From a virus (Duplodnaviria; Caudoviricetes), in the IMG/VR virus record IMGVR_UViG_3300023082_000015, positions 1-47,345 of that record: a stretch of 47,345 nucleotides of DNA; one strand, 5' to 3'. The stretch's first letter is position 1. The number at the start of each line of letters is the position of its first letter. A program made the position numbers and the translations under genes. The notes beneath the pieces are model-generated. The model had not been told where the DNA came from. It saw only the letters and a program-made list of their open reading frames with translations, and ran no database searches. Below are positions 26,454-33,326 of this stretch, one piece after another.

Positions 26454-27694
26454 TGCAGCTTGAGATAGCCACACCGCGTTGGGCGCTACCCCTGTTGCCC
26501 CCATGTCGCTACAAGGGCGTGAAGGGCGGCCGTGGGTCCGGGAAGAGCCACTTTCTTGCCGAACTCCTGGTTGAGGAACACGTGGCGAACCCGAATCAGC
26601 AGTCTGTGTGCATCCGGGAGATTCAAAAATCGCTCAAGTTCTCGGCCAAAAAGCTGATCGAGGGCAAGATTCGCGCCCTGGGCGTCTCGCACCTGTTCGA
26701 CATCACGCTCACAGAGATACGCCGCATCGGCCACGAAGGCCTTATCATTTTCCAGGGGATGCAGGACCACACCGCCGACTCGATCAAATCCCTGGAAGGC
26801 TTCGACAGGGCCTGGGTGGAGGAAGCGCAGAGCCTGTCCCACCGATCGCTTGAACTGCTACGCCCGACCATCCGTAACCCCGGGTCGCAGATCTGGTTTA
26901 GCTGGAACCCGGATCAGCGCACCGACGCCGTGGATCAGTTCATGTGCAGCGAGGAAGCTGCGAACGATCCCAACTTCTGCTTGATCCACGTCAACCTATT
27001 CGACAACCCGTTCCGTCCGCAGGTGCTCGTCGACGAGATGGAACGCGATCGCACCGCAGCACTCGACACGTTCGGCCACGTGTGGCTGGGTGAATACCGT
27101 GACCGCACCGACGCGCAGATATTCGCCGGCAAGTACCGCATTGGCGCTCTGGATTGGGCAGCAGATTGGGACGGCCCGTACCACGGTCTCGACTGGGGCT
27201 TCAGCCAGGACCCAACCGCCGCAACACGCTGCTGGATCGCACCGGGCAACGTGCTTTACATCGACGCCGAGTGCGGCAAGGTGGGCCTCGAACTTGACGA
27301 CACGCCGGCGTACCTGCAGAACGCACTGCCGGGCATCGCCGATTACGAGGTGATCGCCGACAGCGCGCGCCCTGAGTCCATCAGCTACGTGAAGCGCAAG
27401 GGCATACCGCGCTGCGTCGGTGCCGTGAAGGGCAAAGGCAGCGTCGAGGATGGTATCGATCACCTGAAATCGTTCAGCCAGATAGTGATCCACCCCGACT
27501 GCGTTGAGACGGCCGAGGAATTCAGGCTCTACTCGTACAAGATCGACAAGAAGTCCGGCCAGGTGCTGCGCGACATCGTCGACAAGTTCAATCACTACGT
27601 GGACAGCCTGCGCTACGGTCTCGAAAAGGTGATGATCGCCAAGCAACCAGGCGTCGGGCTGATGATGCCGGCGAGATTACGTCGCAGGGGTTGA
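26453..27694 (+). CDS. terL: Terminase large subunit (PBSX-like)
   Basis: GGRGSGKSH, WVEEAQ, WFSWNP, GLDWGF, NHYVDSLRY. Confidence 0.95.
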   Translation: MQLEIATPRWALPLLPPCRYKGVKGGRGSGKSHFLAELLVEEHVANPNQQSVCIREIQKSLKFSAKKLIEGKIRALGVSHLFDITLTEIRRIGHEGLIIFQGMQDHTADSIKSLEGFDRAWVEEAQSLSHRSLELLRPTIRNPGSQIWFSWNPDQRTDAVDQFMCSEEAANDPNFCLIHVNLFDNPFRPQVLVDEMERDRTAALDTFGHVWLGEYRDRTDAQIFAGKYRIGALDWAADWDGPYHGLDWGFSQDPTAATRCWIAPGNVLYIDAECGKVGLELDDTPAYLQNALPGIADYEVIADSARPESISYVKRKGIPRCVGAVKGKGSVEDGIDHLKSFSQIVIHPDCVETAEEFRLYSYKIDKKSGQVLRDIVDKFNHYVDSLRYGLEKVMIAKQPGVGLMMPARLRRRG

Positions 27695-27719
27695 CAGGTG
27701 CGGCGACCTGTGGGAATCT
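27690..27719 (+). promoter_or_regulatory. Promoter of the ncRNA cluster with degenerate operator
   Basis: TTGACA-N17-GAATCT overlapping the terL stop; GTTGAC-aggtgc-GGCGAC. Confidence 0.6.
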
Positions 27720-27745: not shown

Positions 27746-27889
27746 GAAGGGTTTCAGGTGCAAAGGCGGAACGCACCGGCTGTCCTAGGCACGTAGCAGC
27801 GCCGTTATCGTCTGGCGCGGTAGGCCCCTAGGAGGTAAACGATACGAGATGTCGGGTACAGCGGGAACTCGTTAACAATCCATCCACCA
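27746..27889 (+). ncRNA. Three-armed structured RNA unit ending in ACCA
   Basis: Closing stem GAAGGGTT/AATCCATC then CACCA; arms GGTGC/GCACC, TCCTAGG/CCTAGGA, ACGAG/CTCGT. Confidence 0.5.
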
Positions 27890-27896
27890 ATTTTGA

Positions 27897-28018
27897 CCCT
27901 GCGGGCCGGTAGGACCGGAGCGCCTGGGTAGCCCCTGTCATAGCGGAGTAATTACCCGCCTTGGGCAGATAAGCTCCAGGAGTGCAAACAGAGTTCGATA
28001 CTCTGCGCGGGGAGCACC
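27897..28018 (+). ncRNA. tRNA-like RNA with extended anticodon arm
   Basis: Acceptor CCCTGCG/CGCGGGG; D-like arm CCGGT-agg-ACCGG; ~65-nt middle arm; T arm CAGAG-TTCGATA-CTCTG. Confidence 0.65.
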
Positions 28019-28170
28019 GAAGAAGGCCGAAAGGCAGAACTAAAACGGGGCGACTCAGCGCGCCCACCTTGAACACGACCGACCTGACGCGCAGGGTAAT
28101 CAGGCTCAAGGGGACTTCGGTGGCAGCCAAACAACCAGCGCCAAGGACCAGGGGCCGCACATGCGGCGAG

Positions 28171-28291
28171 TTGCACCAGATGTACCTGCTCAGTACCTCA
28201 GACGGTCAGAGGGCCTGCTCGTATCGTGATGACGTTACGTCCGGGAAGTCGGTGGTTCGAGTCCATCCACGAGCAGGTACATCTGGTGCAA
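28171..28291 (+). ncRNA. tRNA-like RNA enclosed by a 21-bp perfect inverted repeat
   Basis: IR 28171-28191/28271-28291; TA then CCTC-agacggtca-GAGG D arm; GGTGG-TTCGAGT-CCATC T arm; enlarged anticodon arm. Confidence 0.7.
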
Positions 28292-28389
28292 TTGGATTTC
28301 TCCGGTAGGTGGGACTCCTAGATAATCGCGGACCTTCGCGGCAAGGCATGAGCCAATTGCACCAACCCACACCCTGCTGCTCCAGACCT

Positions 28390-28414
28390 TGACCCGCTTC
28401 GGCGGGTTCTTTTT
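28390..28414 (+). terminator. Intrinsic terminator closing the ncRNA cluster
   Basis: gacccgc-ttcg-gcgggtt followed by CTTTTT. Confidence 0.85.
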
Positions 28415-28422
28415 GAAGCACA

Positions 28423-30755: not shown

Positions 30756-30929
30756 ATGAAATATCTTGCCCAAGTCAACATCCAGAACAAAGGCGGGTGC
30801 TACCGTTTTAATTCGGACAGCCTTGACGAAATTCGTAACTGGGCAAAACACGTGGGCAAACCAGGCGACGTCTTGCTTATTCAGCCAAACGGCAAAAACG
30901 GTACCTACTCTCGTTCTTTCACCCTTTAG
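30756..30929 (+). CDS. Solitary 57-aa orphan protein (not in ORF track)
   Basis: AAGGA RBS; MKYLAQVNIQNKGGCYRFNSDSLDEIRNWAKHVGKPGDVLLIQPNGKNGTYSRSFTL. Confidence 0.7.
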   Translation: MKYLAQVNIQNKGGCYRFNSDSLDEIRNWAKHVGKPGDVLLIQPNGKNGTYSRSFTL

Positions 30930-31840
30930 ACTTTTTGAGCAGGTGGGGGATTTTTGGCAAGCATCGCTTTAGCCCGATCGATGATGCCCGGGGTCAGAGG
31001 GTTACCCTTTTCGTCAACCAAAATAGAAACCGTGGAACATTTGCAATTGTACCGGTTTCCCCCGCTGTCCCACCATTCTCGCTGTTCTTGAGTCGTGTAA
31101 AGGTGTGCATGTCGGGCTCGATGATGGGGGCGAGTAACTGGGCTGAGTGCGGACATATGCATCTCTTTAGTGAGAATCCCCAGATCGGTTTTAGCTTGAT
31201 CAGCCTCTGCCATTCGTGCAGCTCTGAGGGCACCGGGAATCTCGGTCCGGGCGATACGTAAAGCTTTTCGAGACTCAATACCTGTTTGCTCAGTCAGCTG
31301 CCGGGCAACGTCCCTAACCCCTTTGCCGGCTGCAAGACCGTCTGAAAGAATTTGGCTCATATTTGTACGGACGCCGGCAGTGAAACCCTGCAAAGAACCC
31401 TGCAATCTGAGTTTCAAGAAAGCCAAACGAGTCTGATACGGTCGAGACGTTAACAGTGCGTCTAAGGTCGGCCGGGAGGCTGCGTACGCGGTAGACTGCA
31501 CCGAAAGATTAGCCAGTTGTTGAGCCGTCCCCTGCTGGTATGCAGGTTGCACGTAAGCCTCTGTGAACCACAGGTCACGGCCGTCGTACTCCAGCAGGAT
31601 GCGGTCCACCTGCGCACCCACGTCGTCGAGCTGCATCTGCAGCATCTCGGGCGTGAGCTGATACTGGTAGACCTCGGCGTTGACCGTTACCACGTTGTAC
31701 GGGATGCGCCCCAAGAGGCCGATGTACAGCGCCCGGACCTTGGCGAGCCGCCGATCGAAGTCGTTGATGGCGCCACGTTCCCGCCGGTCCTGGCCCGTCG
31801 GGTCGTGCGGGTTGCTCGGCAGAATCGCTTGAGCGGCCAT
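30926..31840 (-). CDS. Head morphogenesis protein (Mu gpF/SPP1 gp7-like)
   Basis: RIARTE, TRPHH..RH, NCKCS; follows portal. Confidence 0.85.
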   Translation of the reverse strand: MAAQAILPSNPHDPTGQDRRERGAINDFDRRLAKVRALYIGLLGRIPYNVVTVNAEVYQYQLTPEMLQMQLDDVGAQVDRILLEYDGRDLWFTEAYVQPAYQQGTAQQLANLSVQSTAYAASRPTLDALLTSRPYQTRLAFLKLRLQGSLQGFTAGVRTNMSQILSDGLAAGKGVRDVARQLTEQTGIESRKALRIARTEIPGALRAARMAEADQAKTDLGILTKEMHMSALSPVTRPHHRARHAHLYTTQEQREWWDSGGNRYNCKCSTVSILVDEKGNPLTPGIIDRAKAMLAKNPPPAQKV

Positions 31841-33231
31841 TACTCGGTCACCTGCGGCGGTTGTTGCGCCAGCAGTTCCTCGTCAGTCGGTGCAACGTCC
31901 GGCAGCGGCTCGGGCATGTCTTCCACCTCAAAACCGGCAGTCGTGACGATCTGCTCAGGGCTGAAGTACTTGTCGCCGGTGGAGTTGCCCAGGTTGTTCG
32001 TCTCGGCCATCAGTTTCGCGTTGGCCAGCCGTTCGCTGAGGGTAGCCTCGCCCAGGTCATCCCACACGCAAGTGATTTCCGGGTCGGTGCCGCTGAGCGG
32101 AGTGTCGAGCAGGCGGTACTTCGACAGGTGGGCCACGAAGCCCTCGATGTCATCGCTCAGCTCGTTGACGCGGCGCCCCTGGCCCCGTTTGTTGAAGTCC
32201 TTGATGTCTTCCGTGGAAGCACGTTCACCGGTCTGCATGCCGACCACGATTTTCACCGGAATCTGCACGCTGGCACAGGCGGACTGGAGCGCCACATTGA
32301 ACGGCTTCTCGGGATCGGGAACCGTGGCTACCAGTGGCGTAACCGTGGCGCCCTGCATGCCGAGAACGGTGTCCTGGCCGCGGTTCATGCCCTTGGCGAT
32401 GTCGTCGAACGCCGTGTGCAACTCGCTGAGCGGCACGCCATACATCCGGGCTACCTGGTCCATCTGCGTATCTTTCTCGAAGTTGATCGCCAGTTGACGG
32501 GAGGCGTTTTTGAGGAACGATTCACCGGCGCCGCCGACCACCTTCTCGATCGTCACGAAGTCGTTGTACCCGGCCTTCAGTAGAGGTACGCCGGTACGGT
32601 AGTCGCCCACGATGAACACGCGTGACGGGTGAATCTGCATGGCGCGGCCAGGGTCTAGGCTGTCGTTCTCCTTGACCTGCGCCTCATTGAACGACCACAT
32701 GGATGGTTCGCCATACGTCGGGCTCGTGGGCTCAGTGTCCCATGCGGCAGGTTCGAGCTGGCCTTCCCACGCTGGAATCAGCTTCACCAGCACGCCAACC
32801 TTGGCTTTCAGCGGCTGGTCCCAGGCGAGCCCGTCCGCCACTTGCAATAGGATGCCGGAGTAGTGGCCCACCAGGCGCATGCGGTCCGCTTCTTTGAAGT
32901 GCTTCCACGCTTTCAGCTTCTTGAACTGCTTAGCGATCGACTTTTCCCACGGCGTCTGCGTGGTGTTCTCGTCGGCCTTGTCGCCCTGGATAACCTCGGG
33001 CATGGTCTCCCAGCACTTGTCGAGCAGGCGGTGCACGACACCGTGGGCCACACCGTGACGCTCGTACATGCGGTACAGGTCGTTGAACACCAGGTCATTA
33101 GGGAACCCGTACTCGCACCAGGCACCCGGGCGTTTGGCGTCGTTGCCACCCAGGGACAGGGCGTTACGTGAAGCGATGATTTGCCGCTGCGTCAGTTCGT
33201 TGACGGCCAGCTCAAGGGGCGTAGGCTGCAT
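31840..33231 (-). CDS. Portal protein (DUF1073-like)
   Basis: W.EYGFP, IHPSRV, GAGESFLKNASRQL, G.QTGERASTED; GGAG RBS before ATG 33231. Confidence 0.88.
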   Translation of the reverse strand: MQPTPLELAVNELTQRQIIASRNALSLGGNDAKRPGAWCEYGFPNDLVFNDLYRMYERHGVAHGVVHRLLDKCWETMPEVIQGDKADENTTQTPWEKSIAKQFKKLKAWKHFKEADRMRLVGHYSGILLQVADGLAWDQPLKAKVGVLVKLIPAWEGQLEPAAWDTEPTSPTYGEPSMWSFNEAQVKENDSLDPGRAMQIHPSRVFIVGDYRTGVPLLKAGYNDFVTIEKVVGGAGESFLKNASRQLAINFEKDTQMDQVARMYGVPLSELHTAFDDIAKGMNRGQDTVLGMQGATVTPLVATVPDPEKPFNVALQSACASVQIPVKIVVGMQTGERASTEDIKDFNKRGQGRRVNELSDDIEGFVAHLSKYRLLDTPLSGTDPEITCVWDDLGEATLSERLANAKLMAETNNLGNSTGDKYFSPEQIVTTAGFEVEDMPEPLPDVAPTDEELLAQQPPQVTE

Positions 33232-33326
33232 GTGAGTCGCTCCGGGGCGATTGGGTAATGCTGGACAGGATACACGCACGGTTGACACAGTGGGTAGTTA
33301 CGGGAGTTGACACAAGTGATACACTA

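Follow-up and report, generated by a model that had tools for sequence, protein, structure and literature searches.

The window analysed here, a stretch of 47,345 nucleotides that covers positions 1 to 47,345 of the virus record IMGVR_UViG_3300023082_000015, is a 47-kb tailed phage genome with genes for terminase, portal, capsid, tape measure and DNA polymerase. The closest cultured relative by capsid is Pseudomonas phage MR14 (61%), from which we guess that the host is Pseudomonas-like. The portal and Mu-F-like head genes at 30926-33288 are encoded by the minus strand, whereas the rest of the structural genes have the reverse orientation, and the head morphogenesis gene of phage TPWB-08 shows the same inversion. 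The element of interest sits in a non-coding gap of about 790 nt, 3' of the gene for the terminase large subunit, where the following features were identified:

27691-27719, plus strand: possible sigma70-type promoter, as read from the sequence (TTGACA, 17 nt, weak -10 box GAATCT)
27897-28013, plus strand: tRNA-like domain with a 7-bp acceptor stem, a D-like hairpin with GG, a bulged arm, a canonical T arm and a discriminator A, no CCA
28014-28124, plus strand: conserved core with helices P1-P5, an A-rich strand and an 8x8 internal loop
28170-28292, plus strand: neighbouring separate module, a 22-bp stem (28170-91 / 28271-92) around a second pseudo-tRNA (28188-28275)
28391-28416, plus strand: intrinsic-terminator-like hairpin at the end of the non-coding cassette of about 0.7 kb, from a consensus scan only

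The possible promoter is located directly past the stop codon of the terminase large-subunit gene. A strict promoter scan of the window returned none, and the related locus L004 has a better -10 box (TAGATT) at the equivalent position. The three open reading frames that overlap the element have no Pfam match, and no RNA-binding or Ro60 family was found among the 18 open reading frames around the cassette in the Pfam scan. Likewise, no Ro60/TROVE gene was identified within 4 kb, as judged from those 18 frames searched against Pfam and from 33 of the 282 listed frames of the window searched against PHROGs.

The second pseudo-tRNA scored 26.9 bits with the Rfam tRNA model, which is under the gathering score of 29. 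At 28130-28292, a conserved leader is followed by the 22-bp stem with the pseudo-tRNA inside; L004 has kept the leader and the stem with a different tRNA-like insert, and in an RNA-labelled contig from run X3 the segment 28188-28294 is present with different flanks. A third small module at 27775-27851, which has no Rfam match, is found unchanged, between unrelated flanks, in contigs from run X6 and from X18, a run recorded as RNA; in L103 its 3' part occurs again, upstream of the element.

The tRNA-like domain consists of the following parts:

27897-27903 / 28006-28012, plus strand: acceptor stem CCCTGCG / CGCGGGG
27906-27918, plus strand: D-like hairpin
27920-27985, plus strand: 66-nt bulged arm at the anticodon position
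27948-27955, plus strand: self-complementary 8-mer GTAATTAC at the tip of the arm, a candidate kissing or dimer site
27989-28005, plus strand: T arm
28013, plus strand: discriminator A

The original prediction for this locus had described a cloverleaf with intact acceptor and T arms, a long arm in place of the anticodon arm and no encoded CCA. All of these elements were found where it had placed them, with an arm of 66 nt, and the absence of CCA was confirmed from the window sequence. The cloverleaf is also the minimum free energy fold, with pair probabilities of 0.76-1.0 across the domain. The folding energy by itself is modest evidence (z -1.79, with 9 of 200 shuffles equally stable), and it is conservation that carries the case. 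Seven relatives have the same type of cloverleaf, giving a clade of eight sequences, in which 11 of 26 consensus pairs (alignment A3), including six of the seven acceptor columns, have double-sided changes, so the compensatory changes expected of a real structure are present. In a comparison of the window with TPWB-08, where the element is located directly between tRNA-Asp and tRNA-Gln, the arm helices CCTGG/CCAGG and CTGTC/GGCAG account for five double-sided changes, and AGC/GCT and GCGG/CCGC are unchanged. An RNAalifold consensus of all eight members did not recover the long middle arm helices because the two types of arm align poorly. In a related contig from run X1, 27890-28177 is kept with both flanks swapped, and three of the four listed substitutions convert a wobble or mismatch into a Watson-Crick pair. 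On this comparative evidence the cloverleaf is real, with acceptor, D, T and arm helices that co-vary in relatives.

The domain has the 7-bp acceptor and the 5-bp T stem with a T-psi-C loop of a canonical tRNA; the 5-bp anticodon stem with a 7-nt loop is absent, and the 66-nt bulged arm is found instead. ARAGORN called no genes in the window, and there were no Rfam matches at the gathering level, nor any on the cloverleaf element at E<=10. A tmRNA, with a CCA-bearing tRNA-like domain and a tag reading frame, was rejected since both ARAGORN and Rfam were negative. Group I introns in anticodon loops exceed 200 nt; an intron-containing tRNA of this kind was rejected since the arm spans only 66 nt and has no Rfam intron match.

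The 3' boundary of the predicted unit, at 28018, proved to be wrong. Positions 28014-28022 form the 5' strand of a helix that closes at 28115-28124, and the RNA unit thus spans 27897-28124 (about 229 bases), of which the 111 nt at 28014-28124, directly 3' of the discriminator, constitute the core:

28014-22 / 28115-24, plus strand: P1, with a bulged G
28026-35, plus strand: P2, with a GNRA hairpin
28036-47, plus strand: A-rich strand AGAACTAAAACG
28048-65, plus strand: P3 hairpin
28067-74 / 28104-11, plus strand: P4, from which the 8x8 internal loop leads to P5
28083-95, plus strand: P5 hairpin

BLAST matches in the Pseudomonas jumbo phages D6 and Psa21 lie entirely 3' of the cloverleaf, and in these phages the matched sequence follows a different pseudo-tRNA. 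Pattern scans recovered real cores in 16 of 17 matches, in 24 of 24 viral matches and in 19 of 50 metagenome matches, and when P3 was left out of the pattern in a viral scan, it was present in all 24. We examined 40 copies, which after removal of two duplicates, three permuted copies and one cut by a contig end left 34 distinct copies; L197, apparently the window itself, was excluded from all counts. Helices were counted in 31 of these (L114, L174 and L207 were dropped for spacing or an imperfect P1), and those without a role in selection pair in 93/93 (P2), 235/248 (P4) and 124/124 (P5) cells. In alignment A2, 97.1% of the cells are paired as compared to 76.5% after shuffling, with none of 500 shuffles as high, although relatedness among the sequences inflates such tests; 12 of 17 pairs have double-sided changes, slid controls reached 31-57%, and P4 has up to six pair types per column. 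The statistics for P1 and P3 arise partly by construction, since the P1 offset was chosen for best pairing and P3 was required by the search expression. The unpaired strand UAA(A/C)ACG and the loop C residues are invariant, and there is a bulged G. Overall, the core is 76% identical by column, whereas the tRNA-like domains in front of it are unrelated sequences. As read from these alignments, the core helices co-vary strongly and the structure is a nested four-way junction. No general pseudoknot of the P3 loop was seen by eye outside one subgroup. The A-rich strand is reminiscent of motifs in tracrRNA, hatchet, hairpin, TPP, RNase P and group I RNAs, but these likenesses were rejected, as the topology differs and Rfam gave no support.

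The joint between the two modules reads N-G-C at the discriminator in all 34 copies, with CC there in none. The T stem has at least 4 bp in 33 copies, C56 is kept in 32 and A58 in 29, and the T stem ends 8 nt upstream of P1 in 29 of the 34. It had been predicted that the top half of a tRNA is retained, and these counts indicate that it is under selection; the kept T arm fits recognition by RNase P or by elbow-binding factors. The tRNA-like domains are 68-144 nt long and have unrelated arms at the anticodon position (a few acceptor starts were mis-assigned by the script), so that the long arm is a feature of the clade and not the purpose of the family. The arm, which had been proposed as the cargo, is therefore not the main conserved part, which is the core. 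With default settings ARAGORN called a tRNA in 10 of the 34 copies, and 24 have an ARAGORN tRNA within about 0.4-0.5 kb.

The predicted CCA addition and EF-Tu binding are likewise hard to reconcile with the joint. The G-C that follows the discriminator in 34 of 34 copies belongs to the 5' strand of a co-varying helix, so that a free 3' NCCA end is neither encoded nor available from the trailer paired in P1, and both activities are unlikely as long as the core stays attached. A free tRNA mimic of about 120 nt, cut by RNase P, CCA-tailed and bound by EF-Tu, with a functional or excisable anticodon arm, thus appears very improbable. The co-variation of the cloverleaf and arm helices within the clade agrees with such an RNA, and the domain might in principle be released by an RNase Z-type cut 3' of A28013, but all eight clade members are fused to the core, and a group I intron would need far more than the 66 nt of the arm. 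A pattern scan for the arm revealed no free-standing cloverleaf: 4 of its 11 matches were known fused copies and 7 were ordinary tRNAs or chance matches.

The arm may still have a secondary role, because its self-complementary tip is conserved within the clade. The tip is identical to GTAATTAC in six of the eight members and reads GTAATTGC in L110 and GTCATGAC in L187, both of which are self-complementary. Changes from one palindrome to another have been taken as support for intermolecular kissing in the RNAs OLE and GOLLD (accessible part of 10.1101/2024.12.08.627333), and the tip could add dimerisation in this clade, an argument that amounts to one double change and one wobble in eight related sequences. 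The ATTACCC of the tip is also complementary to GGGTAAT in the core; a switch of this kind was rejected, since the ensemble probability of the pairing is 0 and it is broken in L187.

Together, the palindromic tip and the retained elbow raise the alternative that the tRNA mimic is itself the effector. It would act as a decoy or tether towards host defence nucleases that target tRNA, or towards proteins that bind the elbow, and the core would provide a platform for stability or multimerisation, in the manner of Y RNAs. The T arm and C56, kept in 32-33 of 34 copies, would be expected of such an RNA, as would an elbow that persists even in a copy with the orientation of YrlA (L175). Anticodon arms that are not conserved would make poor decoys for anticodon nucleases, however, the core is without an internal tRNA mimic in many copies, and the palindrome argument has the small basis given above; we regard this explanation as quite unlikely.

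Cultured-phage copies, which were reached by BLAST with divergent core copies, revealed that the core is circularly permuted. In one layout, opened in P4, the order is the P4 3' strand, the P1 3' strand with GGU, a pseudo-tRNA, GC with the P1 5' strand, P2, the A-rich strand, P3 and the P4 5' strand, so that the tRNA mimic lies inside the P1 loop. This layout was found in Erwinia phages phiEa21-4, SNUABM_4 and Faunus, Pectobacterium phage CBB and Serratia phage Kashira; P1 is paired in 104/105 and P4 in 90/90 cells in 15 of the 16 copies tried, where the anchors were partly fitted and CBB had no anchor. It matches 64 phage records, 35 of them over most of its length. A second layout, opened in the P2 loop, occurs in L118, L107 and L175, and in a third, nested one (CUS-3, IME10, Huey) the core forms an arm of another cloverleaf, between genes Q and S; the CUS-3 type was found in 121 of 5,426 E. 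coli genomes. Permuted cores were thus recovered from cultured Erwinia, Serratia, Pectobacterium, Pseudomonas, Acinetobacter and lambdoid E. coli phages, and an Arthrobacter phage carries a variant. An exact 26-nt pattern (A-rich strand and P3) matches at least 120 viral loci, with an estimated total of about 190. A rough automatic assignment of topology, in which some partners were mis-assigned, divided 73 clusters from 120 loci into 13 closed downstream, 47 permuted and 13 unassigned. From these comparisons, the core is found in at least four circularly permuted layouts across many unrelated phages.

The P1 loop contains pseudo-tRNAs, a permuted tRNA in the orientation of YrlA (L175, about 90 nt downstream of the core) or one of two or three other conserved domains. 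L319 has kept the core with a short non-tRNA insert, so that there is almost nothing in its P1 loop. Since L319 has no tRNA domain and L175 a permuted one, the core appears to be the constant part and the handle exchangeable. A conserved P1-loop domain of about 140 nt, with a T-loop-like hairpin (CGG-UGAGA-CCG), lies upstream of the pattern match in L225, L226, L236, L240, L258, L299, L300, L302, L305, L331 and L341 and had no Rfam match where scanned. Another insert domain, with CCCUAAACG, is located upstream of the match in L222, L224, L235, L315, L334 and L342, and its first hairpin loop co-varies with the P3 loop. Complementarity between the P3 loop and the first insert hairpin loop, with co-variation, was observed in one subgroup of seven copies (ACCA/TGGT, TCCA/TGGA, TCTA/TAGA twice and GCT/GGC three times). 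Directly upstream of the match in L291 and L318 is a minimal layout without P1 or P2, in which the acceptor stem and two bases are followed by the A-rich strand. In L216 (696-768) and other phiEa21-4-like phages, GenBank labels the pseudo-tRNA within the permuted core as tRNA-OTHER, tRNA-Undet, tRNA-Gln or tRNA-Phe, and phage tRNA counts therefore include mimics.

These layouts bring in the strongest rival, in which the core would represent a new class of small ribozymes, self-cleaving or ligating, and would process transcripts of phage tRNA clusters from a theta-like position, with a cut at or near the joint between discriminator and G or inside the junction. The core is opened at three different helices, as are hammerhead and twister ribozymes (accessible part of PMC10085705), and starts one base past the tRNA-like 3' end, as theta ribozymes do (accessible part of PMC10879173). 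The invariant unpaired UAA(A/C)ACG, the invariant loop C residues and the bulged G would suit a catalytic RNA, the co-varying contact between P3 and insert loops in seven copies is like ribozyme loop-loop contacts, no partner gene was found around the window's cassette, and the hosts are as distant as Vibrio and Arthrobacter. However, no Rfam ribozyme matched at E<=10 (window) or E<=1 (permuted cores), and the attached tRNAs are mostly degenerate, which leaves little reason to mature them. Copies that lack a tRNA insert would have no such joint to cut, and the nesting of CUS-3-type cores in a protective cloverleaf suggests an RNA that is meant to persist. On balance we consider a ribozyme of this kind unlikely.

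We also compared the occurrence of the element across loci and runs. The core motif was absent from the fetched flanks of terminase relatives (0 of 80 loci); the closest of these by terminase, L004 (93%), has kept the promoter, the second module and the terminator and lacks the element. TPWB-08 is 84% identical to the window in DNA at the element versus 39% in the capsid. There was no match to the element in plasmids, and only 1 of 17 pattern matches in GTDB genomes was real, a duplicate of a jumbo-phage copy, while the other 16 look like chance. The phages that carry the core have hosts as distant as Vibrio and Arthrobacter. This pattern indicates that the element is accessory, mobile and patchily distributed. 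Among the contigs of 8 of the 24 listed runs, neither the cloverleaf nor the window core was found in runs on record as RNA, with X3 and X18 containing only the neighbouring modules. The runs with the element or with cores of relatives (X1, X2 and X4) are flagged as probably DNA, so that the depth of one short X4 contig, about 1,500, does not count as evidence of expression.

The reading that we prefer, and to which we give about an even chance, is a two-module phage RNA in which the tRNA mimic would be a handle for processing and stability and the core the working part, binding a conserved host RNA-handling factor in trans. Transcription of the unit would start from the cassette promoter, and host RNase P would set the 5' end by a cut at 27897, 5' of the acceptor stem. 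In a Y RNA with a tRNA mimic, RNase P needs no more than a 7-bp acceptor-like stem to cleave (accessible part of PMC4201824), and the acceptor and T arm geometry of the window (7+5 bp) is compatible with an RNase P substrate. Such cleavage is plausible but not certain, since the D arm is reduced, without U8/A14, and the first base is C. Host nucleases may set the 3' end just past P1, which would block trimming at the discriminator and leave the N73/G74 joint uncut. With the trailer locked in P1, neither CCA addition nor aminoacylation would be expected, and the tRNA mimic would stabilise the RNA. A permuted gene would have its circle opened by this RNase P cut at the position at which the gene in the window is open to begin with, and all tRNA-bearing layouts would thereby give one mature shape. 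The core, a compact junction with invariant unpaired bases, would bind a protein or RNA partner, predicted to be a conserved host factor because no partner gene was found beside the element here. The large non-tRNA inserts in many permuted copies count against the two-module reading, which accommodates but does not explain them, and circular permutation and a location at the 3' end of a tRNA would be no less expected of a ribozyme.

Among known systems, the YrlA Y RNAs (RF02553) similarly combine a tRNA-like domain with a second functional module, and one YrlA is cut by RNase P (accessible part of PMC4201824); L175 even has the YrlA orientation. Unlike in YrlA, the mimic in the window is not permuted, has open acceptor ends and is joined to the core through the acceptor end. 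There is no YrlA match on the element and no Ro60/TROVE among the 18 open reading frames, and the core has no counterpart in YrlA. The HDV-like theta ribozymes (accessible part of PMC10879173) are also structured RNAs with a G-start immediately 3' of a phage tRNA end, but the core has no nested double pseudoknot. Its first strand has the very 3' end as its pairing partner, within a multi-helix junction, its attached tRNAs are mostly pseudo-tRNAs, and it is permuted and without an Rfam match. The RNAC and RNAD (species 1 and 2) RNAs of phage T4 (NC_000866) are non-coding RNAs in a phage tRNA cluster, and the rnaC region, as we read its sequence, combines an odd arm with a T arm and an acceptor-like stem. 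The fetched T4 stretch (L101) lacks the core motif, however, and no sequence likeness was seen by eye; the accessible part of PMC3014915 states that the role of these RNAs remains unknown. GOLLD and ROOL (accessible part of 10.1101/2024.12.08.627333) are phage RNAs that lie close to tRNA islands and in some cases are covalently joined to a tRNA, and palindrome-to-palindrome changes in their loops mark intermolecular contacts. They are several hundred nt long, whereas the window family is about 100-230 nt, permuted and without a match to an Rfam model.

In the CUS-3-type copies, the outer cloverleaf resembles, by eye, the scaffolds of phage sRNAs of the C4/CI/isrK type. The CUS-3-type locus L215 has no Rfam match and L124 only a sub-threshold isrK match (22 bits versus 50), and the label is for this reason one of resemblance. 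Other odd cloverleaves are covered in the accessible part of PMC5389517. No family in Rfam 15 matches the window element or the permuted cores, and no description of the core was found in the literature within our reach, which left out most subscription papers. In the accessible part of a phage RNA catalogue (PMC10690425) there was no motif match in seven supplement files; files 1 and 2, beyond the search, may list an unnamed fragment. Within these sources, the core is an uncatalogued folded RNA with no Rfam family or published description found. We tentatively raise the possibility that it is an undescribed natural ribozyme or RNA-only docking module, spread over phages as different as lambdoid coliphages, jumbo phages and actinobacterial phages, with at least four permutations, exchangeable folded inserts and, in the window copy, a palindromic dimerisation arm.

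Compact functional RNAs, for example self-cleaving ribozymes, of which new classes are rare, have been marked by circular permutation together with an invariant unpaired core. The core family is large, and its copies in cultured phages bear the wrong label of tRNA-OTHER or tRNA-Undet or no annotation at all, and the size of the core suits direct tests by cleavage, probing, pull-down and cryo-EM. The family may thereby offer a testable handle on the role of non-tRNA RNAs and pseudo-tRNAs in phage tRNA clusters, such as RNAC and RNAD of T4.
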